Origin: Saccostrea echinata
Taxonomy: Eukaryota
Assembly (NCBI RefSeq): GCF_033153115.1
Contig: NW_026889790.1
Span: 434,001 to 498,000 of the forward strand
Direction of reading: 5' to 3'
DNA: 64,000 nt
Each line of letters opens with the position of its first letter. The first letter of the stretch is position 1. Positions 1,354-64,000 of this stretch are shown piece by piece. The position numbers and the translations under genes are program-made. The notes below the pieces were generated by a model that ran no database searches, was not told the DNA's origin, and worked only from the letters and a program-made list of their open reading frames with translations.

Positions 1354-1549
1354 CTAAAAAAAAAAAAATGTACAATGCAAATTGATTTACAGAAATATTT
1401 AAAAATCATTTTGAAATTTATGACAAAAGTTACTCAAAGCCCTGATTTAAAAAAAAAAGATCAGCAAAATTGTTGATCAAGCTGTATGCTAATTTTAAAA
1501 TTTTATACCAAATGCAATCAATAACTTAATATAAAAAGTATTATCTTAC

Positions 1550-1709
1550 GTTTCACTTTAATAGCGTTTAATCCTCCTAATGCATTTAGCTCCTTTATAA
1601 TTTCTTTTCCGTGATGACAAAACTCCCAGGAGCCATTCTTATACCCCAGAGCATCTCCAGCCGCACTCAGGACCATAGCGGCCTCATAGCGCAGGGGCAA
1701 GGAAACCAT
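1550..1709 (-). CDS. ADPRH: ADP-ribosylarginine hydrolase, coding exon 1
   Basis: [30 protein letters not shown] matches the ARH1 N-terminus ([20 protein letters not shown]); GTAAGA donor at 1549, phase 1. Confidence 0.93.
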
Positions 1710-2042
1710 GTCTGGATTTGATCTTTTCTTCTACTAAATTTAATTATAGTTTCCTGTTTTGGCCAGTGCACAAAAACGGGTTCTGTGAATTCATATAAAT
1801 ATTAGATACAGAAAGTAAATTCAAACCCTGATTTAAAGTAATCAAGTAAAATCAATATAAATTACAAACCAAAAATAATGAAATCGTCTTAGTCTTACAT
1901 TGTTGACAACAGTCAGAAATACAGAAATAGCCATGACACAAAACGTAAACAAAGTAACTTTCCTTTTCACTTAAAAGCGAAAGTATGTCAAATACGAAAT
2001 AATATTAAACGAATTAACAAGAATCTATTACACCGGAACAAT
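1710..2042. promoter_or_regulatory. Probable bidirectional promoter and 5' UTRs between ADPRH and the Cys-rich gene
   Basis: Only 333 bp lie between the two divergent start codons (1709 on -, 2043 on +). Confidence 0.55.
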
Positions 2043-2176
2043 ATGTGCAAGAAACGAAAAGGCAAAAATTTTCTGTATCTTTTATTAATTATGCTTACTT
2101 TTAGCTTCTGTAACTGTGGATGGACAGAAGATGGAGGGTATATTGGACTCTATCCTGGCGGGTGCACCGTAAAAAG
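2043..2176 (+). CDS. Small secreted cysteine-rich protein, exon 1 (signal peptide)
   Basis: MCKKRKGKNFLYLLLIMLTFSFCNCGWTEDGGYIGLYPGGCTVK: basic n-region, hydrophobic h-region, small-residue cleavage site; AG|GTATCT donor, phase 2. Confidence 0.75.
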
Positions 2177-2231
2177 GTATCTCCCACCACGAAATCTACA
2201 TACACTGTAACTTATAGTAGTGTAGTAAACG

Positions 2232-2347
2232 CAGGAGTTCGCAATTTTATCAGTAAAGTCAATAGAAATCACTCGCTAACGCATAGCTCATGGCTTGGTC
2301 AATCGAGTGATTTCTATTGACTTTATTGATAAAATTGCGAACTCCTG
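2232..2347. mobile_element. Short fold-back element
   Basis: About 44-bp arms caggagttcgcaattttatc...cactcg with a near-perfect reverse complement around a short loop. Confidence 0.7.
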
Positions 2348-2373
2348 TGGTAGTAAAAATGCATATGTAAATA

Positions 2374-2802
2374 TAGTTAGAATATTCTAACTGTGTCTCG
2401 GGACAGGCCCTCACCACAGTTAGAATACGTCCCATATACTTGCAATGTAGCAAATCGGAGTGGATCCACTCCGAAATGATTCTGAAGAATACAAAATGAG
2501 TTGCACTGAAAATAACTACCAAATTAATCATAACAAACCTTTTTGAGATTGTATATGCCTTTTAACCTAAAAATTAATCCATATATATACGAAAATTCAA
2601 CTCATTTTCTCAACGTTTTTTCCTCGCTTCAAATTTAACGCCATGTTGACATTCGGAACTCTCTGGATTCTTCATAGAAAATGCACAGAGTTCGAGTTAT
2701 CGCCCGTGTTTATTTTGCTACATTGCGAATACACGGAACGAATTCTATCGTTAAACCGGGTCCGTAGGACAATATCATTTTAACGATAGAACATTCTATC
2801 TA
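2374..2802. mobile_element. Non-autonomous element with long imperfect inverted ends
   Basis: ttgcaatgtagcaaa / tttgctacattgcga and agaat...ttcta palindromes at both ends. Confidence 0.5.
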
Positions 2803-2923
2803 ATGTAAATATTACAATATACTTAAATATTATTAATATGTAATCATTCTGAAATAATTGTATATGCCCCCTGAGGACCCTTGACTGGTGAATAAACATA
2901 TATATATATATATATATATATAT

Positions 2924-3897
2924 GAATGTCAGACACCTCGGCCCATTGACATTTCGGTCCAATGACATCTTGGCTCAGACGGGTTGGCCCAAGATTTAAG
3001 ACAGCTCGGCCCATACATAAGACACCTCAGCCCAAGCAAAATTTTACCATGAAATATATATTTCCAATTTTTGGACTTGAATTAAAATGTTTATTGAAAA
3101 AAGTATATGAATAAACTATCAAGATTTTTTTTAAAAGATCTTCCATGAACACATTGATGATATTCAAAGAATGAGAAGACAATGCTATTAATTAAAGTGC
3201 TAATTGATAAACAAACAAAATGCCGCGGCGCATCCTTTAGAGTGTCAAGTGTTTGTTTTATTGGTGACAACAGGGGGTTAATTATGAGCAGACTAAATCG
3301 GGAGACAGTAATTAAATACATTTAGATCCATCGAATATTTTCTCATTTATTTCTTAAGAAAAACATTTCCCTTCCTAAATTTGTTATCGTCGCTTATAAC
3401 TAGTTTGAGTCCATTTTTTTTCCCAGGCTACTTGTATCAAAGCAAGTACATGACCAATCTCCTATGTATGAGCCAATATGGTAAAATGTGGTACTTAACA
3501 CGTCTTTTCCTCTTTTTTTTGGCTAATACAAGATTAACGCGCGCAACCGTGATACAGCAGAATTTTTTTTTTTACATTTTCCACAAGAAATAGTTGTAAT
3601 TGAAAGATTGATCTAATCAAGTTCACTTGGAAAAATAAAACGATTATATGTATCAAAAACCCCCATTTTTTATTATTTTTAAAAAATTTTTAATCGTCAG
3701 AAAGAATAATAACACCAATGATAACATCAATTCAAACGCTGGGTTAATCTGTTCATATTTTTCCATCGTAAAATTTTGTTTGGGCCGAGGTGTCTTTTAT
3801 ATGGGCCGACGTGTTACCAATCTTGGGCCGACCTGTCAGGGCTGAGATGTCAAGTGTGACGGGCCAAGGTGTCATTGGGCCGAGATGTCTGTCTACC
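2924..3897. mobile_element. Non-autonomous TIR DNA transposon inserted in a (TA)n tract
   Basis: About 120-bp imperfect TIRs built of repeated GACAYCTCGGCCCA motifs; (TA)n on both flanks. Confidence 0.8.
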
Positions 3898-4599
3898 ATA
3901 TATATATATATTATACATGTATATATTCACTATGTCCTTTCACCCTGACCTCATAGTCACCCACCCGTGTCAGCACGCTTACCAGTCAGTCGTGTCCTAC
4001 CAGTCAACCCTTTCACCATGTTCTTTACCTATTCTTATATGTATTGTATGTACTTGTATTTCTCCAACATGTAAACCTGGGTGTTTTGTTGTCACCTAAT
4101 ACAGGTATGCAACATTTAAGTAAAGTCCCCTATTTTACTACAGTTGGCACAGACAGAGGCACTTGTTTTCAGGATGGCGTGTTTTGTATATTGTGTGTTT
4201 TTCTATGTCTGTCTGAATACACTCATTAAAATAAAAATCAGGCTAAATTAGCATTTTATTTCATGTTTCTGACTCTGTGTATAAAAAGACAAAAGGTTCG
4301 ACAGTTGCCATCTCGAATTCCAGGGGTGCCTCCGTTCACACTTGATTTTATTCAAAAAATCAATTTCTACCCTTTTTCTACTAGTTTCAGGTGAGATCTA
4401 GCTTTGTAAATGATTGAATAACTCCCTTCAAATATCTGCTGATTTGTACTTGCCATATAAAACATGCAGTAAACCAAAATGTCCTCGATACCTAGCACTG
4501 AAACTGAAATAGATGGAAGTAACGATTTCTAACTTTGTAAAGTGTAGAGGCATTGCAGAATTGCATGGAAAGTCTAGAGAGGTCATATTTCTGTTATTT

Positions 4600-6420
4600 T
4601 TAACTGTATTTTGTAAGCTGGACATGAGTATTGTCACATTTAGCACAGTATCCAGAAGTGTAGATTAAAAACTGGTTGTTACAGCTGATGGGTTGATTAA
4701 CATAGTCTGCAGGCCAGTATCCTATCTGCTGTAAACTGTTTGAGATACTGTTTGGGAAGAAGGACTGTTTATAAACTAGAGTCTTTAAATATGGTACCAA
4801 GAATCAGTAGGTATGTCCTTTGGCTGCAGACATCATTGAATTTAGCTTGATGGAATAGCCAGAGGCAGTGCACTTTCCTGTATATCATTACAGCTTTGCA
4901 TCTGGCTCATAGTTCCTCCAAAGATGTCCACTGGAGAGTTTCTAGAACTGATGTTAAACAGCTAGTTTGTGAGCAGTTTTGAGCTGCCCTAGCTTCTGGA
5001 TGTTGTGAGCTGTATGCAGGTTATGCGGGTCCCAAACAGTACGTGCATACCACTGAAGGTCTTACTAGCATAGTACAGCATGTTGCTTTGCAACTTCTTA
5101 TGCAGGCTGTAAGTTGCATTGTATAAAAGCATATAGGTGGAACTGGCTTTCTTTGTAATGGTTTCTATGTGTTCATTCCAACTGAGGCTCTTGTGGATGC
5201 TAACCCCAACATATTTGCAGAGTCCACTACATTTACTTCTAACCTAAGGCAGTGGATGTTGAAAGAGCTGATGTCAGACTTAGGGTTTTTTTTTAACTCA
5301 CAGTTGTTGGCATTTGCTGTTGTGGAACTCCGTCTGCCAGTCTGTTTCCTACTGTAGTAAACTATTCAGTCTTTTTGAAGATAAGTTATATTATTTGAGT
5401 AGATCTTGGCAGAGGACACAATCATTAGTCAGCAGTCAAACATTGGAATGATGGACATATTCTGGTAGATCGTTGATAAAGAGGAAGAACATCAGTGGTC
5501 TGAACATGCTCCCTTAAGGCATTCCTGACTGGACAGTGGCATTGCTGGAGCTCTTCTCATCTACTTACACTCCCTGGATCCTGCCTTTAAGGAAGTTCTT
5601 GGCCCAGTCCAGTTAGACCCTCTGAACTCATAATAGTGAAGTCTCTCAAGGGGATCAAATGCTTTGGAAAAATCTCAAAGTATAAGGTCTGTCCAGTCAC
5701 TGAGATCCATATTTTGGTTAGGTCCTGAACTGTCAGGATCAACTAGGACTAGCATGATCTGTTTTTCCAGAATCCATGTTGAGCATCAGTAATTCATGCA
5801 TCTCTAGGAGTTTCGAAATGTGCTGCTGCATATTAAGTGCTCAAGGACCGTACATGTAACTAAAACAGCCAGTAGTTAGCAACTTAGCTGCTTAAGACTT
5901 TTTCCCTTTGTTAAGGATTGGTACTATATTAGCTTCTTTCCAGTTTGATGGCAACTTCCCTTGCATGATGAGGCCTGGAAGAGTGTTGTTAAGATAGGAG
6001 CTAGGTGGACTGCTTGCTCGTTAAAAAGACAAGTTTGTGTTTCGTCTTGTCCAGCTGCCATATGGATGTTATTAAATAAGGTTGTCTAACAGTTTACGAA
6101 CCCCATTTTCTGTCACTGTGATGTTATTCGTGGTAGGATGACTTTGATGTTTGCTTGGGATGATATTCACATCTTCGTTGCCATTGAAGACTCATGATGA
6201 GAATTGTCTATTCAAGATGTTTGCCTTTAATTCACTATCTAAATATGTTAGGCCATCTACCTCCTTAAGTGGTGCAACTCTGATTCGCATCTTTTTGCTC
6301 TTTATAAATCTTGGCTTACTTGTCAGATCTGATCTTATCATATCCTCTGTGTAGTACTTATAGGACTTCTTATGCTCTCTTTATAAGTCTGTGTAGTTCT
6401 TTTAGGACTTCTTATGCTCT
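4600..6420 (-). mobile_element. Decayed CR1-group LINE (RT and 3' region)
   Basis: Minus-strand remnants QHGF (~5775), DFSKAFD (~5665), SGMP*GS (~5520) and C-terminal YKQSFFP; many stops and frameshifts. Confidence 0.8.
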
Positions 6421-6426
6421 CTTTAA

Positions 6427-6848
6427 GGTGGAAGTAAATACTTCACACTGTTAGGGGTATTTTAGTGTCATCCTGCAAACATCAGGTATTTTAGTGTCAG
6501 TCTGGCTTTCAAAGTGAAAGGTTGTTACTTTCAGTTCTTAAAATTTTTTCAAACCTTACATCACCCCATCAAAATACATCATATTCTATGACAGAGTTTT
6601 ACTTATTAAAAATTAAGATGACTTGGAACAATTCTTACAGAATGCTGGTGGGAAATAAAGGACATTAAACATAGTATCCCTATGTTTCTTAAAGTTTTTT
6701 GTGTAGTTTTAATTTTTAGCACAGTAGTAGCTTGTCATATTCTTATCTTTTTCATTTGGTATTGTACTAGAGCTCCAATGATGACAATGGTGCACTGAGC
6801 TACATTATAATCAGTCTTCACCTAAAATGGGTCTGATTTATGACCACC
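6427..6848. mobile_element. Possible Kolobok-like non-autonomous element
   Basis: TTAA|GGTGG ... CCACC|TTAC ends; weak TIR. Confidence 0.3.
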
Positions 6849-7360
6849 TTACTTTGTTCTTGCTCTCTCCATTAACAATTAATTCAACAATTAATTTCTA
6901 CTTTTTATTAATATTTAGAAATCTTCCACATGTATACCCATTGTTACAAGCCACAGCCCAAAGTGTAGGATCCTCTCCCATTCTGGAGAGAGTTATAGCT
7001 TGAGATGATGTTTACTCTCTTCCATTCAGTTTCTCTTCCATTCCAAATTCACATTGAAGGTATGTGGTTTCAGTTTCCCTTCTAGCTTCTTTTCTCTTCT
7101 TTGTAATACAAAACCATGTTACTGGTATGCTTGTCTGAGCAAGAACATGTTAACTCACTATGGCCTACATATATTAGCTTGTGCCATTTTCTGTTTCCTT
7201 AGTTCTTTATTCTTATGGAAAATTCAAAGTAAGAATTTTATTGAGTTAATCAATAATTATTCCACCAATACTTGTGTTCTTACACCATTTTATAATTTGT
7301 GGGATTGTTAAGTTTTCAGTTTAAATTCTTGATATGATCAGTATGTTCTATTTGTTTTAG

Positions 7361-9780
7361 TGACTGGGTGAATTCAAAAAAAATGACCACCAAACTGAAT
7401 TTTTTTGGCAAAATTCAACTACTTATAACATATTTTTCACTTATATCATCATATTGCAAATGCATTCTAGTTTAAAATCCTGAAGTGGCAATAGAATAGA
7501 CAATTGGATTAAAAAGTTTCAGAATTTTTATTAGTAAAATTTCTTTTGAAAAAAGAAAATATCATTACACCTTAAAAGACTTTCTAAAATACATAATCTC
7601 AAGAAATTATAGTTTTTTATGCTTCAAAATGGTAAAACGGGTATAAATGATTAAATCTAGACCTTGAATGAGTATCTTCTCTTGTACATGTGACAAAAAA
7701 TTGGCTTTTTGATTGTTATTTTACATTATTTTTTCAATTCTGGTTTGAAAAGTTTTCATATGAAAAAAATATGAAGCAATAAAATTCCCCAAAATTCACT
7801 TTTTTGTCCGTTCAAGTCAATTCTTTAAATCTAAGCCAAAAAAGAATTGATATATACGAGTTCTCTTACAAAAAATACTAGATTTTGAAGTCACCCTATG
7901 TTACATTATTGTGTTGCACTCCTGACATCTGATATGTATTTAATTTAACATTGTTTTAAAAATTATAACACACAATAGCCCATTCTTACTTTGTAAATCA
8001 ATTTGTCGTGTTGATATTTTTCATCGTTTACAGCAGGTTTTTCATATTTTGAAGACCTTAAAACGATTATTTGCAAAGTGTAATATATATAAATTGTATT
8101 TAAAATATATGTGATATGATGAAAACTATTCCCTGAATTGACTGTAAAATTTCTGTAATTTGTTGATAGACATAGTGTTTTGAACATCAAATAGTATCAA
8201 GCATTTTTTTCAACTTATTTTTTAGAAAACATAGTTAAAAAGCATCGGTAATTATGAAGCAGTTTTGTTGCACTCCTGACTGCAGTAAAGTTTAAAATTA
8301 AAACCATAGAACACAAAAATTCATAAAGTGTTGGCAACATCAAGTGGTAATGAAATTGTGCAATACTTATAGTCCAATACTTCATAATTAAAACAGATGA
8401 AAGTATTTAAAATTCGCATTTTATCTGGAATTATACCCTATTTTATGCCAAAAAAACTAGCTTAAATGTATATTTAGAAGATAAAATATATTTTAAAGCA
8501 TATTTTCCTTTAGAAGACAAACACAGTAACCCACCAGAAAAATTCTACTCATGATTTTTTCCTTATTTTTATTCTTATTGGATGATTTATAATTCTAACA
8601 TATTTGTTGCACTCCTGACCAAAAGCATTGGGGCCTTTAAAGTAGAATTGTGAAGTGAAAATTACATAAGAACTTGTTCTGTTGTTTCAGTGAAGTTGAG
8701 GAGGAATTACTTGAATTTTATGACAATCTTTTAGTGTGTTTATTTTTAACGTTCATTAAAAAAATCACAAAAAAGATAAAAACACATCTGAATTGATATA
8801 ATTGAAAAAGGAAGGATTTTGATCATAAAACTGTCAATAATATAGCATTAAATTATACAAAAAGATCATTATTAATTAATGAATACTTCTAAGCATGAAT
8901 AGAAGTCTTTTCGTCACAGAACTTGAATCTTTAAAAAAATGTGTTGCACTCCTGACCATAGAAATATGGATCTGAAGCACAGACAGATCCTGTAATTGAT
9001 AAATCTATTTGGTAAAAATGTTCTTTGTGGCTTTATTTCCCAAAATAAAAATCAGAAAATCATATAATGATAATAGTTTTTTCATGCTTGGAAGCAAAAC
9101 ATCAAATGTTGCACTCCTGACATTTTTGGGTATGCACATATACTTGACTCTCATTAATGCTGCTTGTGATTTATATAACATTTTAAAGTTTTAAAATGTA
9201 TATCAGTTATTATTTTACACTTCCAAAATTCTTTTTTGTCTTAATTTTCTATCAGAATTTTACAATCGATGTTTTTTTGGCAACACTACATTTTTTCTGT
9301 TGCACTCCTGACATGGTATAACATTTTTTTAAACATCAGCCATGACCACAACTTGATTAAACAAAAGTTTCAACAGTCCACATTTAAAGCTCAATACTTT
9401 GAATATTATCAGGAAAGTCTTTATTTTCAACATGAAGCATTATTTTTTATTTCACAGATCTCCAAAAAATATTGAAATTTCAAAATGTCACAAAAAGGTG
9501 TTGCACTCCTGACAATTTTAGCATCATTTTTGGGCATAACTTTTTTGTTAATTGAGATATCAACGAGATATTTGGCAGGTATTTAGACACTATCTAAAGA
9601 CATATGCTGAGACATAGAAATCTATTTTCATTGCCTGTATTTTTAGTGTGGGTTGATAAATATGCGTTTGGTCATTTTTTTTGAATTCACCTGACTGCCC
9701 AATGGATGAGAGATGCATGCATTCAGTAGAGGAGACAGTTTGTCCTAGTGATCATCAAAATTTATGCAGGTGTACTTTAG
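7361..9780 (+). CDS. Cys-rich protein exon 2 (7361-7366 plus 9698-9780), interrupted by a 2325-bp transposon
   Basis: Acceptor tttgttttag at 7360. Removing the element and one TGACTG copy gives an 89-nt phase 2-to-1 exon, SDCPMDERCMHSVEETVCPSDHQNLCRCTLG, with donor G|GTTTGT at 9781. Confidence 0.75.
7367..9691. mobile_element. 2325-bp non-autonomous TIR DNA transposon, 6-bp TSD, with seven internal 15-bp direct repeats
   Basis: Perfect 23-bp TIR GGTGAATTCAAAAAAAATGACCA; TSD TGACTG at 7361-7366 and 9692-9697; no long ORF inside. Confidence 0.92.
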
Positions 9781-10417
9781 GTTTGTATTATCATATAGAT
9801 TAAGATTTAAGGTGGATAGACCCTCATGTAAGAGAGGTAACTCTCACTGGGATAATGACATTCCTTTTAAAAAAGAAAAGATCAATTTACATGTAAAAGG
9901 CCATTTCTGTCAAACTTTGCACAAAAGGTCATTCTGAAATTGCCCACATTTCAAATATAATCTAGATGTCTTTTCAAAAGTCATGATCATTAAAGAAAAA
10001 TTTTATGTAAGTTAACAGAGGGCTTATAACTGATTTACTCCATGTACAACTTCATCTCTCTCTCTCAGACAGAAAAAAATCTTGTTTTGGATATAGAAAA
10101 TGTATAATATTTCAACATATGTGTTAATGTTTATAAGGTTTAATTAACGTTAATAAAAATAATAATAATCAGTTGGAGAATAATCTTAAACATCACTGAT
10201 CTGAAGCTTATTTTTATCCTGGAAAGAGTAGTCTGAAGGACAGGTGATACAAACCTGTACATGCTTCACAATAAATGTAAAAATCATTTTAATAAAAACA
10301 AAAGCCAAAAATAAGGTAATTGTCAGAAGAATCCAGAACAGTATTTTTGGAAATGTGTTATTTATTGTTATTATAGAAAAAAAAAACCCTAGACTTTAGT
10401 ACTTTTTTTCCTATTAG

Positions 10418-10512
10418 GTTGTGAGATTGATAATCTAATTGTCCGTTATGAACAGTGGCGACCCATTCCAGGAAAAGGATTCTGCAAGTGTATCAATTCT
10501 TTAACAAATGAA
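10418..10512 (+). CDS. Cys-rich protein exon 3
   Basis: tttttttcctattag acceptor and GTAAGT donor; open only in the required phase-1 frame: (G)CEIDNLIVRYEQWRPIPGKGFCKCINSLTNE. Confidence 0.75.
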
Positions 10513-10781
10513 GTAAGTACATATGTAGTGATATTCAACACAAAGAAATTATAAATAAAATAGATATTGAAAGTTTATAAATGTAATGCAGTCCTTTAAA
10601 ATCAGCATACATGTACATGTACGCTAGTTTTTCAATGTTTATATGCATTTTCTATTTGAAAAAAAACAAAACAAAACTTCAATGTATTTTCATTTTAATA
10701 CTTTCAATATATATGGCAATATGGCAAATATTTCACTTAGATTTAAGTTGGCAATTTGTTTTATTTTTTGATTATGTATAA

Positions 10782-11002
10782 TTTTTAGGTCACCTGAGTC
10801 ATTCAGGTGACCTATTCTGTCAGTTTTTGTCCCTCCATTTGAGCATTTTCAGCTTCTTCTCTAGAACCACTGAACAATTTCAACCAAATGGCACATGGCA
10901 TCTATGGGTAAAAGGGAACAAAAATTATGAAGCAGCTACTCATCACAGATGATTGAAATTTTAGCACACTCTTTGTTTAGGCATGCCATATGGTGGGATT
11001 CA

Positions 11003-11050
<48 letters not shown>

Positions 11051-12297
11051 CATTGTCCATCCGTCCGTCTGTAAACTTTTCACATTTTCAACTTCTTCTC
11101 AAGAACCACTGGGCCAATTTTAACCAAACTTTGTACAAAGCATCCTTGGGTGAAGGGGAGTTTAAATTCTTAAAATGAAGGGCCAAGTCCCCTTCAAAGG
11201 GGAGATAATCAAGAAAATACAAAAATTGGGTGGGGTCATTAAAAAATCTTCTTCTCAAGAACCACTGGGCCAGAAAAGCTGAAAATTATGTGAAAGCATC
11301 CTGGGGTAGTGTAGATTCTAAACTTTTCAAATCATGACCCCCAGGGGTAGGGCGGGGCCACAGTAGGGAATCCAAGTTTTACATTGAAATATGTAGTAAA
11401 AATCTTTATAAATCTTCCTCTCAAGAACCACTAGGCCAGAAAAGCTGAAACTTATGTGGAAGCATTCTGGGGTAGTGTAGATTCTAAATTGTTCAAATCA
11501 TGACCACTGGGAGTAGGGTGGGGCCACAATAGGGAATCCCAAGTTTTACATTGAAATATGCAGAAAAAATCTTTAAAAATCTTCTTCTCAAGAACCACTG
11601 GGCCAGAAAAGCTGAAACTTATGTGGAAGCATCCTGGGATAGTGTAAATTCTAATTGTTCAAATCATGACCCCTGGGGGTAGGGCAGGGCCACTATAAGT
11701 ACTACAAGGGGGGGGGGAGGGAGAAATCAGCTGAAAAACAGCAAGGCCAAAGTTACTCAGGTAAGCATTGTGGCCCATGGGCCTCTTGTTCCAATCTGAT
11801 GTCAACTTCATGTTCATCCGTGTGTCTGTCCGTAACAAATTTTCGTCACAGTTTTCTCAGCAACTACTCGTCACAGATCCTTGAAATTTTAGCACACTCT
11901 TTGTTTAGGCATGTCATACTGTGGGATTCATTGATTCCATTTTGTATGAATCCGATGTCAACTTCCTGTTTATCCGTGCGTCTGTCCATTACAAATTTTT
12001 GTCAGTTTTCTCAGCAACTGCTCAGTAGATTCTTGAAATTTTAGCACACTCTTTGTTTAGGCATGCCATATGGTGTCAACTTCCTGTTTATCCATCACGT
12101 CTGTCTGTAACAAATTTTCATCGCAGTTTTCTCAGCAACTGCTCAGAGCAGATGCTTGAAATTTTAGCACACTCTTTGTTTAGGCGTGCCAAATGGTGGG
12201 ATTCATTTTTGTATGAATTTGATGTCAACATGAGAGTGTATATTCACATCAGAGCAGGGGTATTACGAGTGAGCATTTGCTCACAGACTTATTGTTA
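10782..12297 (-). mobile_element. Composite of nested HINE/Helentron-type elements
   Basis: Hairpin aggtcacctgagtcattcaggtgacct at ~10787; a second family with repeats gaaattttagcacactctttgtttaggc at 10955, 11883, 12035 and 12158, split by the element at 11003-11790. Confidence 0.75.
11003..11790 (-). mobile_element. HINE with 166-167 bp tandem monomers (Cg170-like oyster satellite)
   Basis: Hairpin agctcacctgagctgaaagctcaagtgagct, GTCC microsatellite, agaaccact at 11258/11424/11591, terminus ggcccatgggcctcttgtt. Confidence 0.85.
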
Positions 12298-12976
12298 ATC
12301 ACTGTAAATAATGTAATTGATTGGTGAATTGAATAAAAGAATTATACAAGAATTTTTAATATATAATACAAAAATGTTCTTTCATAGTTTTTTTTATGGT
12401 CAGGTAGATGTAAATAAAAGATAAATAAAAATGAGACAAAAACACCTTATCTTTGTATATTAAATGTTCTTCAAAGACCAAGAAAAGCTAATGTAATGTG
12501 CTCAAGCAATACTGATTTGTTTAAATCTCTATGATGATAGTGACAAATGGGGGTGTATTAGTACTGGCAAATACAGGCAAGGAAATAGATCTGCTTAATA
12601 TAATTTGTTATGAGCACTAGACTAATTTGTTGATCCCTGACCATTCCTTTTGGGCATTATATCTTCATCTATCAGTGTTTGTTTTATTTTATACTTCTTT
12701 GGATCCTTTCAGTGTTTATATTATACTCAGGTGACTATTAAGACCTTTGGGCCTCTTGTACATTCATTTCTAGATGTTTACATCTGAATGCAAATATTGC
12801 CAAGTGAAAGGTCAAGCACCTAATGTGCATGTCAGTTTACCATGGCTGTCATTGTATCTGGCGTCAGTGGGCGGGGATTGTGGAAATAAACATGGAATGC
12901 CTCTTGTATTTCATATCTATTAGACAGCATGTTTGATGTATATTTTTTCACATATAATCTTGCCCTAATTTAAATG

Positions 12977-13141
12977 TAAGGAATCACTTTCTAGTTTGTT
13001 GGGTATGCCAGGGATATTAACAGCAGTTGGAAACATGGGATAATTTATGCAGGAGGGGCTTTACCCATTATGTAAATTATTCCATGTTTCCATCTGTTGT
13101 TTATGCCCTAGCATACCAACAAACTAGACAGTGACTCCTTA
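12977..13141. mobile_element. Fold-back (possibly Crypton-derived) element
   Basis: taaggaatcactttctagtttgttg ... caacaaactagacagtgactcctta; inverted over most of its length. Confidence 0.7.
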
Positions 13142-13232
13142 AATATATTTTAGTGACTATGAATCAATTCTGATGGGTATTTGTAAACATATGTACATGT
13201 ATAAAATTCAGTGAATGTTTTTTTTTTTTCAG

Positions 13233-13262
13233 TCAGACTGTGTGGAGCACTTAGACTTATGA
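13233..13262 (+). CDS. Cys-rich protein, probable last exon
   Basis: Long T-tract CAG acceptor; phase 0 SDCVEHLDL*; gives an even count of 10 Cys in the mature chain; AATAAA follows. An alternative last exon is 12774-12923. Confidence 0.55.
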   Translation, partial: SDCVEHLDL

Positions 13263-13597
13263 ATGAGACAGATGAAATAAAGAGATGATGAACATTTTCA
13301 TGAAGTTTAAACTTAAAAGATTCTCATAAATGCTGATGTTGAGCAAGTTTTTTTTTTTTTTTTTTAATTTCATATGTGTGCTCTAATGAGACAATACTTA
13401 CACATCTTCAATAATCCATTTTATCAAAATTTTAAAGTTTGAACTATATTACTTAAAAAATATTAAGGTCACAATGAACCAGGTACAACAACATTATTTT
13501 CTGGTTTCTACATCTTTTTACTGTTAACTTAATAGAAAGAAAATGATACGTTACAGTTATGTATTTGTGCCTTTGCACTAATATTTGATGCATTATA

Positions 13598-13764
13598 CAG
13601 TAAAACACGCTTATAGCTAACACACTTATAACGAATTACAACAAAATAATTTTCATTCCCTGTTACTTTGAAATATATTGTAAACTTAACGGATATGACA
13701 AATTACACTTATAACGAAGCAAAATCGTCCATCCCTGGAACTTCGTTAGAAGCGTGTTTTACAA
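13598..13764. mobile_element. Tc1/pogo-type MITE
   Basis: TA|CAGTAAAACACGCTT ... AAGCGTGTTTTAC TIR with a decayed right tip. Confidence 0.7.
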
Positions 13765-14192
13765 TTTTCTACATTATAAATTAACTATTCAGATAAAAAA
13801 AAATGCAGCTTCTTAATGTTTTGAATATGAATTTTTGTTGAATGTTATTTATATTTTAACATTATTATTTATTTTTTTAATTATATTTTTCTCTTCTTAT
13901 TTACATAATTATACACACACACACCATATATATAAAAGATTTTTTAGGGTTCCAGGAAATTTGTGCAATTAATATGAAAATATTTACATTTCCAAGTATT
14001 TTTCCTTAGGATTCTTTGCAAATTAGAAGGCTGTTCATTTTCCCATGAACTACCATGGATGAGCATGAATATATCCATTGTTACATCATAATACTGTACA
14101 TGACGTCAAAACTATAGTGCAAACTGTTTTGCTTTAAAAACGACAGTTGAATGGCGTTATTTGTGGTAACTCATCAGAAAATAATGTAAATA

Positions 14193-15775: not shown

Positions 15776-16118
15776 ATGCCCAATCGCAGAGAAGAACACG
15801 GAATTCAAAAGCAGCAAACAGTGACATCGCGGTGCCTGGCCATTGTCTTGAAATTTGAAAATGGAGACAGGTGCGAGAGTGATGTGAAGGAAGAGGGTTT
15901 TAGTGGAAGAGATATTTTAGACGATTTTAAGCTGCGGAATAAGAGTTGTTATTGGAATCCAGCTTTGTTGGAAAGTATAAACAGTTTGGAATATTTGGGA
16001 TTTGTGTCTCCCTGTACATTACTAGTGGGAGGATCAGAACTTCACCTGGAGAACATCAGAACAGCCTGGGGGAGGCGAGTTTTAAATGACCCCTCGGATT
16101 TTAGTATTCAAAGCATAG
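15776..16118 (+). CDS. STOX1: Storkhead-box protein, coding exon 1
   Basis: YWNPALLESINSLEYLGFV...AWGRRVLNDPSDFSIQSIG resembles the STOX1 N-terminus (FWNARL...AWRRRALRPPRGFRIRAVG); G|GTGAGT donor, phase 1. Confidence 0.9.
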
Positions 16119-19100
16119 GTGAGTCAGGTATTTCAGCAGACGGCAAAGTATTACTGGCTGATTTGGACAGATGGGTGAAAGTGAAAAAGAATGAATTGTT
16201 TATACAGTTACAAAATTTTAATTGATTTTTAATTGACTGGTTAGATATTGATACATTTGGGACAGATGTTGCGTTGAAATTTTATTGGTCTCTTTCAAAG
16301 ATTGTTTATTTTAAAGTCTAGTCGATTGTCGTGCAAGAATTCAAACAGCTTAATCTGCATGACGAGAAACTTGTAATATTTCCCCGATGTATGGTAAGAA
16401 GACTTTCGAATTTTGCATTAGACTGGTCACTGTAAATTACATGAATGTAGCTTCCAGCAATTTTAACGGAATGATTTATTACGGTACATAAGAAGAAAGA
16501 CTCGGAAATAGTAATTAACACCTGAGCTGTCAATTTTATGATTTCTCGGATAATCGGGTAAAGTTTCAAGTTTTACGGGGATTAAATGTTTAGAGACAAT
16601 TGAGAAAGGAGATTAAATAGATTCGATAGATAAGATTGTGTCATGATAGTAGTGTCGGAGTTGGCCAGGATTTGGTGGGATATCCTTTGTGTAGACTTTT
16701 TGCTCGTCTTGATTTTCTTTACTGATAAAGGTGTTTGAAAGTAAAGGGATTAAGATAGAATCAAATTATAGGATCTTACACAGAGAATATCTGTAATAAG
16801 CTAGTAATACCTGTCAGATACTAATAAATTATTTTTATCAAAAAACAGTGAATAATATTAACATCATTAATGTTTTTTAGTATATATGATGAACCCTGGA
16901 TTAAAAATTGGCTTATTACCATGATTACACAATTTAAATGGACTTTTGCAGAAAAAAGGGGTGTATTTATTGGGGGTATTAAATTGGGTTTCATTAAAAA
17001 GGATAATAGCATACCGTTATATCATTAAAAGTTAGGAAAAAATGCATTTAATTTAATAAACTTGGTCCAGTGATATACTATGTACCTGATGTACACTTAA
17101 CATCTTTTAGGAAATTTTGTATAGAAATTAATTTTAAAAACTAGCATTAATTTTAACCAAATAATTTTTAAAATGGGGTCTATATTTATATATTACAAAG
17201 TTTTACCTTTTACCATGTTCACTGTCTACATACAGGATATTTTTATTTAAGGACAGAGGATACGTTCCTCAATAATATATAATTTTTTCTTAGATTTTGT
17301 CATTGAAATATTGCTATTTTAGCATGTTTACTCGCAAAAAATTGAGGTACCTTACCAGGCATTTGTGCAAGATACTGGAGGATGTTGTTTCCTATAAAAT
17401 CCTCTTGGGATAAAACTTAATTTGCCAATATCACATTTTTTAGGGTTTCAATTTTTTAAAGACAATTTGAAACAAGTTTAGTAATCAGAAGGTAATTAAA
17501 ATTTGGAATATTTTTCATACAATACAAAGATATACAAAACATATTTGAGAAACGTATCGTCTGACCTTAACTGTCTCAAACAAAGGTCAATTAAAGCATT
17601 TGATGAGACCAAGCCAATAAGGAGACTCCAAGCTTAATAGAATGATTAACAAGATCAATTAATTACAAGCCATACAGATAATGAGGAGACTGCTTTAGTA
17701 GAATACATGTCTAGTTTGACATGTTTGTTTATTGTAAACAAATAGTTGTGGGATATTGTGCAGAGATTTGTAATGATTATTAGTTTGACATAAAAACAAG
17801 TGTTACTATGCCAGGTGCCAGAAAATTCAACACCCCGGGCCCTGAACACTTTAACACCTCATAGTTTTCTCTGTTTATAAAGGAATTGTTGGAAAATTGC
17901 TGGTCATTTATGAAGAAGTCAAAAAACTGTTAACTGGAATTTAGGAAACAATAGAATAAGGGAATGTTCTTTCAGGGTAGGTAAATAACATATTAATTTA
18001 TTTGTTTAATTTTGACAGTTTGTTTTATGTAGAATAGATTCCAATGCTACTTTTTTCATGATGTGAATGTAAACTGTTATAAACTATTTTAATTATATGT
18101 CAAACACCTTGAAGACATATCAATTAAAATTAAAAATGAAAGAATTCTTTGGAAATTGCTTTAAATACCTGTTACTTTTAAGTTAGGGATTAGTACTAAT
18201 TGCACAAGAAACCTTCAGTAGCTGGCTTAGTCAGTGAAATAGAAATTGATTTTCAATAACAATTAGGGGTTTTGCATCCTATTGTGTATAAGACAGAGTG
18301 ATAGCTGTTAGTGACCTTTGATTGGGCCCCATGCTGACCCTTAATGAAGAGGGCCCCTTGACCCCCTGATGGGAGGGAGAAAAGGGAAGTGGTGGAGTGG
18401 TCAGTTTCCTCTTGTATTGTGACACATTTCTATTTTACATACATTTCTATTATTTGTGAGTTTTCCTCTGCATATGTTATAAGCAGCTGTAGAAGAAAAG
18501 AAAACTTTGGTTGTTTGTTAACACCTCTGTGTTTTTCCTCCAAATATCAACATTTGACAAGGTGAGTTTGGTCAGAATCACTCCAATATTGGTTTAAGTC
18601 TTTGTATTGTTTTACTTAGATTAGTTTACGGTGTGTCAGATCACTCAAGCTTTGGAAATCCATCCTTTTTCAATGCAGCTTCAGGGGAACTTCAGGCGAA
18701 ATTTTTTTGTTAATTGTTAAAATCTGATATTTATTGTTTTTTAAATTTTTTTTTTTCTCAATACATGTATTCTATTTATAGGGAAGTCATTTTTGATAGT
18801 AAGTTTATTATGTTACACATGTTTAATTCTTTTTTACTTTATTATTTTTTTTTTGTAATATTTTAAAAAGAAAGTTGCAGATCATTATAAAAATCCCAAG
18901 AAAAGTCAGAAAACCCAGGACAGGAAGTTTTTTTTATTGAACTGTTCTTTAGAGTGATAATCAGTGAGAAAACAGTTTTTAAAGGACCTTTTCTTTTCAT
19001 TCAAACCTAACGTGTACCTGTGAAGTAATATCACACTTACCTGATACAAGGTGACCCTGTTTGTTCAGAAATTATTTCTGTTCAAACAGTTTGGAGAAAA

Positions 19101-22394: not shown

Positions 22395-25053
22395 GATTCA
22401 TATTCATCTTTCTATTGCAGGGACATTTTTAAAAGAATTTTTTTTTTTTTATTATTATGAGTTTTTGAAAGCTATTGAGAACATTATAGGTTCAGATTTC
22501 TTTAAATATTTATTACTAATACCAAAGTATTGAGGCTTTAAATGTGAGATAATTATAATGAAAAGACTCCCCAATTTATGTTTAGCTTTCCATGACATTG
22601 GATATGGATGCCTCAATGCAGACAATTTGTTCCTGAGTTTTCTCATTTGTTGTATGTGCATTATGTAACTAAACACCTCAGCAAGATATTATTTAAGAAC
22701 TTTTTAAACAGTCAAACAACCCCTTTTAGAGAGTTGTAAAGAGGTTTAATGAAGAATTTAGGTCTTATCAGACAAAAATCTTTGTTCAAGTGCAGAGTAT
22801 ATGCCTTCATCCTTTTTGAAAACTAAACCAGCTTTGTCTGGTGGTGGGTAGGAAAACAAACAGGGAAAAGGTAGCTTACAAGGGTACCAGGGTGGAATAT
22901 AACAAAGATAAGTTGCTATGTGTACAGACCCCTGAAACAATCAAGAAAAAGCGAACAAAATCTCTTGTTATGTAAACATTGAACCATGTAGAACTTGTCT
23001 GGTTAGTTATATGTGAAGAGGGAAGTTTTCTGTTAGACTCTGAAGACTGCCATTATAAGTCACTAAATCTGATTCTGACTTGTGGTCCATTGTAATTCAT
23101 AGTAGTGAAAATTTAGGGTCAATCAGTAAATATTTGTACATACATAAATCTAGTATAATAACTATGATTTGTTTCCATGGGTAGGTCATATGAAAAGGAA
23201 AGAAAAACATAAAACCATATCTTAGTTACTTCTTTACTGTTAATGGATAGAACTAGTTTTGTCCAAGACCAATTAAGGAAGAAATGTAAACTTTGTGTCC
23301 TTTGGCGTAATCTAATAGACCCACCATCTCTATTACTGGTCAACAGTCCTGTGGGCAGCTAAATGACTGTCCACTAATTTGTAAAGTACCACAGACAAAT
23401 TGAGACAATTATCACCGAACATGTTCACACTTGGTTTTATGATAGTGCTAAAATCGGTGTTACAGGACATTCCGGGGTTGCCCAGGGACAGAATTAATTA
23501 GAATTGTACATCATAACAGGGGGGATAGAGAGCTTATTATGGTCGAATTAGAGAAAGCCATGATTAATGTCCCACACCTGTCATATCACCTTCAATAACT
23601 CCATTTATTTCACTTTTTCTTATCAGGTGAAATCTGTGTTGATAATTTTGACAAGACCTACTTTAGAATTTCATGTAATATTATTCCATGTAAGGATATT
23701 TGCATATGTTCTTGTGACGAGACAATTCATGGTCCTGTATACTTTGGTACAATTTGAGGCAGCAGATACCATTTACAATGAGAATATATCCTGTATTTCC
23801 TTTTGACGCACATAACGTTTCATGTTGCTTCTGAGTTAGATGACATATTGTCAATAAGCAATACCTTATCACCATGTATTACACTATAAAAGAAATTGGT
23901 CAACATGACTCAAAAATTGATGTTCACATGCATACATGTACTTTACGAAACAAAAATTGTCCATACCCAATCCACCTCACTGCAGAATAAAAATTTATTC
24001 CAGTTCGTCAATGTGATCCAAACCAGACGCTGTAAATCAGCTTGGAGATTTTATGACTGTGATTTTAAATTTTATTGTTGTGCTATTGTTTGGGCATCCA
24101 AGCTATAACGCCATCATGTCCATATAGGTTGGTGTGCAGAATGCCTCTGTGCAAATTGTCTATTTTCTAAAATCTAATTTGAAACTTAGACAATTAATTG
24201 CTGTCATAAAATTGAGGTCCCTTTTTTCTGGGTAAACTTGTAGATTCAGATCCCTGAAAATATAGTGACTGGTCTGATATGAAGCGTAAAATTTCAATAA
24301 ACCTTTTCTGAACATAAGCTCAGGAAACTAGGATTAGAAACCTAAATTTTTAATTTACCACCCTGAGGGTTAATACTCTGTTGTAGCCAATGTCAAAGGG
24401 GAAAAAAAAATCTTATCACAGAAGTTTAAAGATCTAATTGAAAAATCATCTGTCAACTTTTAGGGTGCAAAGATTTTATGGTTATTTTCTTCTCAGGAAT
24501 ACTCACAAAGCCCCATTCTAGCAGATTTCTATTGATTTCACCTTGAGTAACACAAATTCATTGATCTTTAATTCACTTATTCAGAGAAGGTGAACAAATT
24601 ACAGGCTGCACTACTTTTGTATTTGCAAAGAAAAAATTGTTATCAATGATTTGTAATTGAAACATTGAATTATTTCTGAAATTTGGTTTATCACCATTAT
24701 CATTTTAACGATCAAGATCTCAAAAAGTGAATCATATATTCTATAGTCATTACTTCTAAATTGAATTGACAGCACACAAGAAAAGATTCTAAAGAAACCT
24801 CAAGGATCAAGCCTTAAGTTTGAGTACTTGTATCTTGTAAAATCAATCAAAGAATTAATATCTAAAATAACTCAACATTCAGGTTTTGGCTTGTCTTGAT
24901 GCCATACATTCCTTGAATAAATAAGTTGTCAAAAATGTCATCATTTACTTATTAAACAAATCCAGTTTCTGATAAATATCACCTTAATATAGCCAAGGGA
25001 CATATATGTTATTAAGTGTCAATTTAATTTTTTTAATCTTTTGGATCTTACAG

Positions 25054-25536
25054 GAAGTGGATATTTTGTTGTGACATCAGACACTTACAGAATGCCTGAG
25101 GACCCGACTAAAACGATTCCTCTGTCATGGCTTCATTACAATCCTAATTATATCCCAGTGCTGAACTCCAGTGCCAAAGGACTAACCCGAACCATCTCAT
25201 GCCAAGTGACATTGGCCAACGAACCTCGCAAAAAACAGTCCGAGAAAAGCTCTGATCCAGATGATAAAATTGTGGAAATGAGACACAATCTGGAAAGGGA
25301 GACATTAGAAAGACAGAATCAACCACTGGCTGACAAACCAAGACTTGGTCACAGTCTTAGTGCCAGGAGACAGCGAGAGAAGGGACCAGTTAAAAATGAC
25401 GATCTGCGAGACTTCAAGAGGAGTTTATCAGTCAGACGACAAGATGAGAAAGAAAAGAAACACACACAAGAGGAAAGGAAATCTGCGGAGGACATTGCTA
25501 TTACTAAGAACAGCTCAAAGAAAAACAAAGATAAAG
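25054..25536 (+). CDS. STOX1: Storkhead-box protein exon 3
   Basis: GSGYFVVTSDTY completes the domain (GYFIVTPQTY in vertebrates); 483 nt, phase 1-1. Confidence 0.92.
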
Positions 25537-26385
25537 GTATGTAATGAAGTTAAGTGACATTGTGTTTTACTGAAGAAATTTATTTTCTAGCAGTTAATTA
25601 TCGTTTGTCTGGTTTTATTGGATAACTGTTTAACCAATTTTCTTTATAATGTTATTAAAGCTAGAGCCAAATTATTGAAGTTTGAAAGGAATATTTTTAT
25701 CATGTTTATGTTGTTGGGATAAGTTTGTCGCTAATACATGTATTTTGAATTGGAAAAATGAAATATAAGAGGTGATTGAGTAAAAACTGAATAAAACTTG
25801 TCTGTACAGTAAGAAATAATATACCTGTATTCACTCTTAAATACCCTGTGTATTGAAAAAAAAAAAAGAATTAAAAAATTCACCTAGTGTAATACCATTC
25901 AAGATGATATTAGAGTAAATGTTTTCTTATGGATAAGAAACCTAATCTTTTTGTTATTGAAAAAATCATCATTTCCTTTGAGTTAGATAACATCAAAGTA
26001 TAATTTAAGTCTTTAGACTTAAGTTTGAATTATCGATTTAAAAGTCTCTAAGTTTTGTGAGTATTATGTAAAAAGCTAATAGGATTTGTACAAATTTTCT
26101 GTCTGATTCAGTGTTAACTGTTAAAGCCAGGTATTGTATTTGCAGAATGTGTCTCAATTAACTCAACCAGTTCAGATTATGTGACATTATCTGTAATGAG
26201 TAGTTCATTAATCCCACTCAAGTTACCGACAATAGCTTCATTTTCATACATGTATATATATTATAATAGATTTCAAATAAAGGGAGCTAGTAACTTAGCT
26301 CTAAATTATCATGTGAAATCTGAAATGAAAAATTTACTCTGTAACCTTTTCAAGGCTAATAATTTCTTGTTGTTGAATGTTTTAG

Positions 26386-28019
26386 GAGAGAAGAAGTCCT
26401 TGTTAGCAAAGCTTTTTGGGAGAAAGAAGAAAAAGACTGATACTCCAAAAGAACAACCAAAGAAAGTGGAGTATGCCACATTCTCTGACCAGTTTCCACC
26501 TCCAGAGTGGGGATGGTATCAAGACCAAGTGGAAAAACAGCAGCGGATACACAAGTGGATGCAGCAAGTTCCACATCATCCACACGTCCACCACCAGCAC
26601 TACGACCGTGTCCATCTTATCCACCAAGGTCATCCACATCATTCGGATTATCACTCAGTGAGATTTGGACATGGACCAATCAGAAATGATGTTATATATG
26701 GAAGACATGTCCCACAGCATGAAAATCACTATCATGTGCCACCAAGGATGAAACTAAGAAACAACCCTCCACCTCCACTGGATGATGATTATGAGGAAAT
26801 CCAGGATGTGGATGCTAACAGTAGATTCAGATCCACCCTACCAGCACATCATCATCATCCACAGGAAGTTGAACATCACAGGAGAATGTCTGAAGGTCGA
26901 CATACAATGAGGAGAAAAGAGAAATCCAAAAGAATGTCCTTGGATAGGAGAGTGGATAGAGACTATGAAAATGTTCCAATGTGTTCAAACTATCCCTCCC
27001 CAGCATTTCCCTATCACACAGAAAGTAGCCATAATATGCACCACAACAGCCATCCAGTCACACACCCTCTCTACAGCTCAACTCCGCGAGTACCTGGAAT
27101 GTGGCAGCAAGCTCATGAATCATATTACCCACAAGTCAATGCAGAGGAAGTCCATCAACATCAGTGTACCACTCAAAAATCCAAAAAGAAATCTCACCGC
27201 AGACATGGCCAGTCAAATCACAGACAGATGGAAGAGCATTACAGACTGCCTGCAAAGAACACGTCAATTTCTATTTCTCACGACAGCGGAGTGAATCTGA
27301 TTGGCCTCCAGACAGTGCATTATAAACCTTCGCAGGACACCCATCACAGAAGAAGAGTTCACGACGACATGTCCATCCGAAATAACCTTAGGAATGACCC
27401 TTATGGAGACTTGGATGAGGACCTTCCTAATTCCAGTGGTCAAGTTGTGTATGAAGTTGAAATTAACAAACGTCCGGAGCCAAGGACCAGAGAAAATGAA
27501 TATGTTACCATGGAGACAGACTCCAAAAAAGACAATGAGAAGAAGAGAAACAGCTGTAACTCTGACAGTGCATTAACTTTCAGTGAACAGAGCTGTGACA
27601 CAGTCATAAAAAAGGAAGATAAAGACGTAGAGGACATTACAAAGGAGACTTTAGAGGTCGTTTTGGGGGATAGTGGCTTCAGCTCACCCCGAGTCTGTGA
27701 TGAAAGCTCCCCAGAAATGGAAAAGCAGAAGATCAAAAGCAAAGTGAAAGAACTTGAAAAGGGAAGTCACTCAGACCTCTGTGATAAAAATGTCTACCAA
27801 AAATCTGATGACAGTTCTCCTGAAATGCGTGAAAGTCGCTCAAGTGACAAGGAAAATAGAATTAACATGATAAACAATTTAAAACAAGTTCAAGGTGACT
27901 ATGGGGTGCTTACTCATGTCAACCCAGTCAGTGGCAGAATCCCCCTTTACCCTCAAAACACAATAATCCAACCAGTTCAGAGGAAATTCAGCTTTGAGGA
28001 TGATTATGGATTCTTGTAG
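26386..28019 (+). CDS. STOX1: Storkhead-box protein exon 4 (last); total 896 aa
   Basis: tttag acceptor; conserved TFSDQFPPPEW motif (FSAQFPPEEW in STOX proteins); His-rich low-complexity tail; TAG stop. Confidence 0.92.
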
Positions 28020-46970: not shown

Positions 46971-47121
46971 CTGAAGAGAGAGAAAAAAATCTTACCTAAA
47001 GTTACAAATTACTTAATATTTAAAACACTGTTATATCATTTTATCTAATTATATACAAGTTAATTTTCTTATAAATCATAACCCTTAAAGTTACAAAAAA
47101 ATTGAAAGCATGTCACAGTAC

Positions 47122-47382
47122 CTTCGATCTTTGCTTGCTGATCTTGATCTGTCCTTCTGTCTTGACCGTGAGCTAGATCTGTCCTTTTGTCTTGACCTTG
47201 ACCTAGATCTACCTCTCTTTCTTGATCTTGACCTAGATCTGTCTCTTTTTCTTGATCTTGACCCAGATCTATCTCTTCTTCTTGACCTAGACCCAGATCT
47301 GTCTCGCTTTCTTGACCTTGACCCAGATCCGTCTCTTTTTCTTGACCTTGATCTGTCTCGTTTTCTTGATCTTGACCTAGAT
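47122..47382 (-). CDS. SR splicing factor exon 5 (RS domain, 30-nt tandem repeat)
   Basis: 261 nt, RSRSRSRKRDR... repeats; TAG acceptor, GTACTG donor. Confidence 0.88.
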
Positions 47383-48110
47383 CTAAGGAAATCAAGAAAT
47401 ACAAAATTGAATCTTTTAAACATGATAAACACTGTCATATTTCTATTAATTTTAACAACTTTACATTTGGTATTCAATGAGAATGTTATCTGCTTTTTGT
47501 CTAAAGAGGAAGAAGATGAACATTTGCAGAAAGTATGTTTTTTGGGGTTTGATAGACAGGAATGAATCAACGTCTTTGAAAGTAAGATAAACATTATTAA
47601 CGGGCTTCAATGTATCACCTTCCCCAGCTCAGGCTTTTTGCTATGCTGCCTACAAACCATTGGTAGATTATGCCAATAAAACTGTGGCTGATATTGCATT
47701 TGTTTGAAGCTAAACTCTTTAAAGCAATGAAAAAAACTGCTGTAATATCATGTCTTGTAAAAAAAAAAAAAAACAACAGACAAACATTCATATATACATG
47801 TATAAGCAATTGTGACTCTCTATTTTATTTCACATACACATTCTGTCCTTGTAAAATTCCATTTTTTGCTTACAATAGAGATACCTGATTGATAAGTTTG
47901 AAAGCTGCTGGAATCTAGAGTCAATATTCAGTGCATCCAGATGGTGTTACTAAAATTATATCAGCCAGAGTTTAAGAGGTGTAATCTGCAACAGGTTTAT
48001 GGGTAGTTATAGCAGACCAAAAATTCTTGGCCTTAAAAGATGTAAGTGTACTTGATTTTTGCCAAAAAATATACCGGTACATGTATGTTCTTAATCCCAG
48101 TTTTCTAGGG

Positions 48111-62949: not shown

Positions 62950-64000
62950 CTGTGAAAAAAGAAGGCACTGTGTTTAGAAATTCTGAATAAAATAAATAGT
63001 CACTAAATAATGCAACCCTAGCTCCCAAATCTTTGTGTTTAAAGCACTGCACTACACTATAAGACATATTTACTTCAAATTTTTTCTTGTCTCCATTTTC
63101 TTTATATAATAAAGAAACAAGCCGCTAGAATTCCTAATACATAATGACTTGTGTTAATACTCAAGAGTGTATTATATATACTAATCTAATTCTGGCTGGA
63201 CTTATTTAGTAAAGAATAGGAACCTAATTCTGATACAGCTTGGAATGCTACATTTTCAATGCTTGTGGCTATTCAATGCTAGCTTTGCTTGCTGCAAGCA
63301 ATGCTAGAAATGTTTGATACCTTAATTATATCCTCTTCTTTATTACCTGTAACTTTGCTACTTGAAATTTAATAAGTGCGAAGTTTTAACTTTTTAATAA
63401 ATATAAATGTTCATGAATGCAGATTATGCTTTGAGATAGATGATTATTGCTATGGAAGTTGATTTTTTTAACTGCAGTTATTTTCTAATATCATAATACA
63501 TGTATATAATTTGTGTTTGTTATGAAAAAATAATAGCTTTTTTATTCACACTTTTAGGTCTATCTTGCTTTACAAGTATATCATTTATAAGCATAAAACC
63601 AGCATTATTTAAATACTGGACACACCATACTAATGATTATGATCTACATGCTGATTTTCCTGGCTGGCAATGCTTAGCTATTTTGAGGGTTAATTATGCT
63701 GCTGTTTCTTTGTGAATTATATTGCTGATGCTTATTTTTGTACCAGAAATAGGTCCCTGTATTGTCTATACAACAGTAAATAATGTATTGCAATACAAAA
63801 TTGGAGGCACAGATAAGTAGACATAGAACTAGTTTCTTGTGTTAATTTTGTATCAGTCATGCACAATTCCTTTGTCTTAAAACTTCCACAGAAATGAACA
63901 CGAACTTTCCCTTTTAAAATACCACATTTTTCTCCAGAAATATATATCCATAAATCACTTAATACATACAAAACTAGTTTATCTGCAGTACTTGTATTTT

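Follow-up and report, generated by a model that had tools for sequence, protein, structure and literature searches.

A likely null allele formed by a Sola-like transposon insertion in a coding exon of the oyster Saccostrea echinata

Introduction

Heterozygous transposable element (TE) insertions are reported to be common in oysters, in which up to 14% of bases are hemizygous; of those hemizygous variants that have been polarised, 81% are insertions, most of them at low frequency (bioRxiv 10.64898/2026.02.10.705023). TE-caused premature stop codons, coupled to nonsense-mediated decay, are described as a standard route to loss of function (PMC6888579), and TEs have been discussed, as a speculation, as a source of the genetic load of oysters (PMC5804265). 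Among DNA transposons, Sola1, Sola2 and Sola3 are present in bivalves (PMC10294476). A target site duplication (TSD) of sequence AWWT is a hallmark of Sola1 (PMC3845634) and is also reported for Sola2 elements (PMC3627910), whilst piggyBac elements duplicate TTAA (PMC5199201); non-autonomous elements are grouped in Repbase by TSD length and termini (PMC4455052).

Here, we describe an insertion of a DNA transposon into a coding exon of a cysteine-rich protein gene, located in a 64,000-nucleotide stretch of the Saccostrea echinata genome assembly (hereafter, the window), together with an empty copy of the same site elsewhere in that assembly.

Results

Boundaries of the element and its target site

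Perfect inverted arms of 23 nt (7367-7389 and 9669-9691) were found in the window where a first-pass annotation, made from the sequence alone, had located an element with inverted ends (Table 1). The sequence GGGTGAAT forms the start of all 26 complete sibling copies, each of which also has the terminal C; the terminal inverted repeat (TIR) is therefore best described as 24 bp in length with a private terminal mismatch, C>T at 9692. T as the last base is a property of this copy alone, with no other row amongst the best 40 of 2,031 candidates reaching query base 2327. The ends of the sibling copies give a length of 2,327 bp, correcting an initial estimate of 2325 bp.

An exact 4-bp flank duplication is present in 25 of the 26 complete sibling copies; a duplication of 6 bp also fits one of the 26, which sits inside an AT microsatellite. 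These copies derive from three sets (19 of 20 loci, 5, and 2 of 8, respectively); excluded from the TSD count were one copy with an internal deletion (L031) and six of the eight stretches of the last set (L070-L072, L074, L076 and L077), which are interrupted, partial or diverged. By comparison with the siblings, the TSD is the 4-bp GACT and not the 6-bp TGACTG proposed initially; the apparent 6-bp repeat arises because the first base of the element (G) and its altered last base (T) chance to lengthen the duplication, illustrating that TSD length is better read from a family than from a single copy. On the same comparison, the insertion point is after base 5 of exon 2. An equivalent reading, in which 5 bp were duplicated and the terminal C of the element was lost, fits equally well.

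A genome search with the left end gave matches of 98-100% identity (40 scored of 1,039 candidates). The terminal repeat has 406 exact matches in the genome, compared with 0 for a backwards control, which suggests that the family comprises at least ~200 copies. The element lacks a transposase open reading frame, its longest stop-free frames being 76 and 77 aa. A 15-nt motif occurs within it as seven exact copies (7912-9513), all in the same orientation; these are possible transposase-binding sites.

Table 1. Coordinates in the window of the interrupted gene, the inserted element and associated sites.
Feature	Position	Strand	Remarks
Coding exon 1, 134 nt; start codon and first mature Cys	2043..2176	+	Donor 2176 in joints of 4/4 runs; finds oyster orthologs
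Cassette exon, 141 nt, with in-frame stop	6919..7059	+	Intron 1, both copies; joints 2176->6919 and 7059->9692, one contig of run X1
Native acceptor of exon 2	7336..7360	+	Abuts exon 2 on C19; on C41, 2.3 kb separate it from the intact exon
Left remnant of exon 2, first 5 bases	7361..7365	+	7362-7365 is the left GACT TSD
TIR DNA transposon, non-autonomous, Sola-like, 2,327 bp	7366-9692	.	26 complete sibling copies aligned
Read-through stop codon TAA in element	7473..7475	+	82-aa product in silico
Acceptor-like site in element, AG ends 9646	9622..9656	+	In-frame TGA 9654-9656 follows
Exon 2 complete, 89 nt	9692..9780	+	0 differences from the C19 exon; joints in 4/4 runs
Right GACT TSD copy	9693..9696	+	Comparison with siblings and empty copy
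Coding exon 3, 95 nt	10418..10512	+	Joint 9780->10418 in 4/4 runs
Final coding exon, 9 codons plus the stop	13233..13262	+	Completes product 115/115 identical to P0022; AATAAA at 13276

Relationship to Sola elements

Judged by the duplications of its family, the element is Sola-like, and would fit Sola1 or Sola2. The family shares with both a 4-bp AT-rich TSD, 12 of the 26 siblings having AWWT. The termini of Sola2 elements are G-rich and start 5'-GRG, a pattern with which the GGG start seen in 26/26 sibling copies would be compatible. Sola3 and Kolobok elements, for their part, duplicate TTAA, which is found in 0 of the 26 sibling TSDs; the family does not match these two groups or piggyBac in this respect. 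Two features of the present copy are atypical, its altered terminal base and its GACT target (G begins none of the sibling TSDs), and its length of 2.3 kb exceeds that of typical MITEs (<800 bp; PMC5199201).

An autonomous partner encoding a Sola DDD transposase was found neither in 8 stretches chosen around TIRs that were unpaired or lay far apart, nor in 15 stretches drawn from 95 matches to DUF7869, a domain which we take to be linked to Sola. A different transposon of ~4.8 kb (L078:1030-5855 and L079:1024-5860; G000:C1 and C11) has a DUF7869 match, TIRs starting with GAG and an apparent ATAT flank duplication. With about seven near-identical matches in the genome, it is likely to represent an autonomous Sola-type family of young age that has no sequence relationship to the 2,327-bp element.

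An empty copy of the site on a second scaffold

The empty site predicted in the first-pass annotation is present in the same assembly as a single exact match (G000:C19:3118681-3118704, minus strand; 0 matches for the backwards control). The scaffold of the window, C41, and the scaffold carrying the empty site, C19, are collinear, with 97.5-99.7% identity around the gene and 99.6% over 34 kb downstream. Across the gene span (1700-13400), C19 and C41 are distinguished by 5 substitutions, 5 short indels and a single insertion of 2,331 bp, corresponding to the element plus 4 bp.

More distant C41 probes at 0.25, 1.2 and 1.6 Mb (three of eight) have C19 matches at 98-99%, with offsets between matched probes that drift by tens of kb. 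The other five (0.06, 2.2, 2.7, 3.2 and 4.3 Mb), of which those at 0.06 and 2.2 Mb are mostly repeats, have no C19 partner; the duplicate is therefore a block, spanning at least 1.35 Mb, and not the entire scaffold. C19 at 1.0 Mb duplicates yet another scaffold, C23 (12.74 Mb), at 99%, and divergence between C19 and C41 is patchy, being ~0.1% near the gene and 1-2% at other probes. Taken together, the length of the block, its patchy divergence and the duplication of C23 by C19 are best read as an alternate haplotype retained in the assembly, i.e. C19 is most likely the other haplotype.

Alternatively, C41 and C19 could be two loci of a recent large segmental duplication, in which case one paralog would have been pseudogenised and two working alleles would remain. 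Such a duplication would account for a shared block that is bounded (only three of the eight distant probes match C19) and internal to both scaffolds, which are free of N gaps over the 84 kb and 80 kb inspected; it sits poorly with the patchy divergence, with C19 also duplicating C23, and with the recurrence of equal-scoring match pairs elsewhere in the assembly, and we consider it improbable. That the insertion is an artefact of misassembly, or a somatic event, is extremely unlikely: it is known from the assembled sequence, but the duplication has the 4 bp typical of the family, the site is unique, and a copy of this kind with private variants is unlike a collapsed repeat.

The pairing of C41 0.25-1.6 Mb with C19 3.24-2.0 Mb identifies megabase duplicate blocks in this assembly, which are probably unpurged haplotypes; copy counts taken from the assembly may be inflated. 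Further C19/C41 indels of several hundred bases lie at 49259-49670 of the window and, on C19, near window positions 58575-59005. A tandem array of ~68-bp units, ~12 kb in length, upstream of the window (C41 ~420,300-432,400) is far shorter on C19.

The interrupted gene and its presumed transcripts

All four coding exons have open frames, as the first-pass annotation had maintained. Exon 3 has two matches only in the genome (G000), on C19 and C41, and a gene that is single-copy and conserved among oysters forms part of the explanation that we favour. The assignment of exon 4, which lies outside the stretch aligned to contigs (1700-10780), rests on protein identity. A candidate for this exon at 12774-12923 was rejected, as it has at least 148 other genomic matches, mostly stop-containing, and is without a homolog, whilst the orthologs favour the exon in Table 1. 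The rejected segment is a repeat copy whose acceptor and open frame make it resemble a Cys-containing exon, and constitutes a trap for gene prediction.

Contigs from 4 of 7 runs (3 studies, 2 organism labels), which we presume to be RNA-derived, were aligned to the gene. Splicing of exons 1-2-3 is seen in all four of the aligned runs, through the joints 2176->9692 and 9780->10418, one contig each, and follows the pattern of the empty copy. The first joint bears on the concern, raised initially, that transcripts might employ an alternative exon 2; the contigs use this one. The cassette exon in intron 1 introduces a stop after 28 added codons, and may be either a regulatory poison exon or a product of noisy splicing. 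No joint of the inserted copy is among those listed (3 joints and 140 loose ends unlisted), a result which, as contigs drop rare forms, is uninformative on its frequency or decay.

The intact product is a Cys-rich protein of 115 aa, identical at 115/115 positions to P0022 (XP_061180955.1, Saccostrea echinata) and at 103/115 to P0018 (S. cucullata), with orthologs in Crassostrea virginica, Magallana gigas, M. angulata and the pearl oyster Pinctada imbricata. These uncharacterised bivalve proteins (XP_061180955.1, XP_062615335.1, XP_022318287.1, XP_011429230, XP_052684261.1 and KAK3092049.1) are 58-100% identical to it and have a conserved Cys pattern; exon 2 is uninterrupted in all aligned orthologs. 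The mature protein contains 10 Cys residues. Nine of them are conserved without exception across the 10 sequences aligned, a set that includes several from a single species, and the remaining one is almost invariant; Cys47 is invariant in 10/10.

The hydrophobic N-terminus encoded by exon 1 is a putative signal peptide. Because of this hydrophobic stretch and the 10 mature Cys residues, we consider that the intact product is most likely secreted and acts as a binding protein with five disulfides, the functional part of this assignment being held at low confidence. Our best guess at its layout is a six-Cys N-terminal knot, with a weak DPY-like score, followed by a four-Cys, beta-rich C-terminal part, the latter perhaps resembling Fn1 or vWC. 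No Pfam family, EGF-like modules among them, scored above the cut-off, the best being the Dumpy DPY module (E 0.04-0.13; 12.7-14.2 bits vs a cut-off of 27). The PDB holds 0 sequence relatives, atlas scores are at most 0.78 and serve as leads only, and a search for longer relatives returned none, which is weak evidence. The structure model is poor (pLDDT 51.3, pTM 0.30), with a low-confidence helix at 6-20; fold searches with it gave no solved relative (best Z 2.8) and, given the quality of the model, are uninformative. Rfam gave no match in 1500-14000. Ten gene and protein identifiers had no mention in the article texts searched.

Predicted consequences for splicing

The native acceptor, confirmed to end in AG at 7360 and, as first described, separated by 2.3 kb from the rest of its exon, now leads to 5 exon bases and then the element. 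The exon 2 behind the element is preceded by CC, and not by an acceptor AG. Read-through into the element in silico halts at the TAA recognised at the outset, downstream of which (stop 7473) the element contains nine sense polyA-like hexamers. An acceptor-like site overlooked in the earlier annotation, the AG ending 9646, lies 46 bases inside the right end of the element; with a pyrimidine fraction of 0.75 and a 28-nt AG-free zone it matches or exceeds the acceptors of the gene itself. Splicing to this AG in silico gives a stop after 47 codons (47 aa), and skipping of the 89-nt exon 2 results in a frameshift and a product of 46 aa. Splice strength was scored crudely, from pyrimidine fraction and AG-free zone; 5 of 108 AGs pass this filter, all within the element, with 9646 the nearest to the exon 2 donor.

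Amongst direct splices from exon 1 to the 108 AGs, three (9712, 9748 and 9769) reach the normal C-terminus, as do 6 of 5,950 GT x AG pairs. Every one of these in-frame routes uses a weak AG and loses Cys47, and the inserted copy is therefore likely to be a null allele. Clean removal, as for an intron-generating transposon, was rejected: CC precedes 9692, and the Cys47-Cys53 stretch survives with 0 of the 5,950 GT x AG pairs.

A leaky allele, from which cryptic splicing would yield an in-frame and partly functional protein, was proposed initially as a fallback. Two of the sites named for it exist, namely a GT at 7368 in the left TIR and an AG ending 9712, which is in frame and deletes 7 residues including Cys47; in-frame products could arise directly through the AGs at 9712, 9748 and 9769, or from donors 7368 or 7470 with AGs 9710, 9731 or 9734. 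The tracts are weak, with pyrimidine fractions of 0.38-0.50 vs 0.69-0.75 in the gene's own acceptors, donor 7368 requires a 7-nt exon, and Cys47, invariant in all ten sequences, is lost on every route found; we thus regard partial rescue as very unlikely. The initial view of a loss-of-function insertion is upheld by the existence of the empty site and by the loss of Cys47 on in-frame routes, with loss itself deduced from sequence.

Age of the insertion and movement of the family

The flanks differ by ~0.1% between C41 and C19 (5/7,365, 6/7,308 and 26/23,000 sites). If the insertion arose after the haplotypes split, it would be recent, with its age bounded by this flank divergence; the few substitutions and short indels between the two gene copies fit the youth originally ascribed to it. 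Thirty-two sites (1.4%) separate the element from the closest of the siblings sampled, and 15 substitutions are private to it (family range 3-58); its own sequence therefore does not show youth, and no near-identical twin is present among the best 40 of 2,031 candidates. In the most parsimonious view, an already old copy transposed once more, its donor having been cut out or being absent from the assembly.

The contrast between 1.4% from the nearest sampled sibling and ~0.1% in the flanks, and the lack of a twin among those candidates, would also suit an old insertion, with the near-identical empty copy a later product of precise excision or gene conversion. Cut-and-paste transposition may, however, leave no twin, the donor possibly being on an unassembled haplotype; the private changes are within the family range; the altered terminal base should hinder excision; and the orthologs all have an uninterrupted exon. 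An old insertion accordingly appears to us a slim prospect. Close pairs of family members at different loci, with 9 and 17 differences, are consistent with fairly recent activity of the family.

Other features of the window

Segments at 15776-16120 (+), 24993-25544 and 26118-28019 are exons of a large downstream gene, with no Pfam match at E 0.01. A Rho GDP-dissociation inhibitor exon (PF02115, E 3.9e-25) is located at 62753-63124 (-), and an Arg/Ser-rich repeat frame at 47069-47606 on the minus strand resembles an exon of an RS-domain protein.

Discussion

It is likely that a non-autonomous Sola-like element inserted into exon 2 on one haplotype (C41), with the gene on C19 intact, and that the resulting null allele is sheltered in the heterozygous state. 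In the mechanism we propose, a transposase supplied from elsewhere would have moved this cut-and-paste element to a position after base 5 of exon 2 on haplotype C41, whilst the gene on haplotype C19 stayed intact. From the inserted copy, transcripts would most likely splice to AG 9646, skip exon 2, or read into the element, and each of these predicted routes would give a truncated product and probable nonsense-mediated decay; the copy would therefore be a null allele, sheltered as a heterozygote. We infer both the allelism of C41 and C19 and recessiveness.

A more far-reaching, and rather unlikely, proposal is that the allele segregates as a recessive harmful knock-out of a conserved bivalve secreted-protein family, generated by a still-active Sola-like family of ~200 or more copies. 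If true, it would be an instance, typable by PCR, of transposons adding to the high genetic load that oysters carry, and would supply a ready-made mutant with which to address the function of the protein via carrier crosses. The locus is in any case a concrete candidate for a harmful recessive allele made by a transposon, as its filled and empty forms occur in the same assembly and can be told apart simply by size, and offers a natural mutant for a conserved protein without an assigned family. For annotation, it implies that the duplicated block holds one disrupted copy of the gene.

The mechanism is textbook, and one heterozygous null is to be expected in a highly polymorphic animal; the locus is an unusually clear example. 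With the heterozygous TE insertions described in oysters it shares an insertion on one haplotype, an ancestral empty state in relatives and a TIR DNA transposon (bioRxiv 10.64898/2026.02.10.705023). It differs in that a coding exon of a conserved gene is interrupted, the words 'exon', 'coding' and 'Sola' being absent from the main text of that report. The cases described in PMC6888579, in which TE sequence in a coding transcript leads to a premature stop, are of the same kind, with the route predicted for the present locus.
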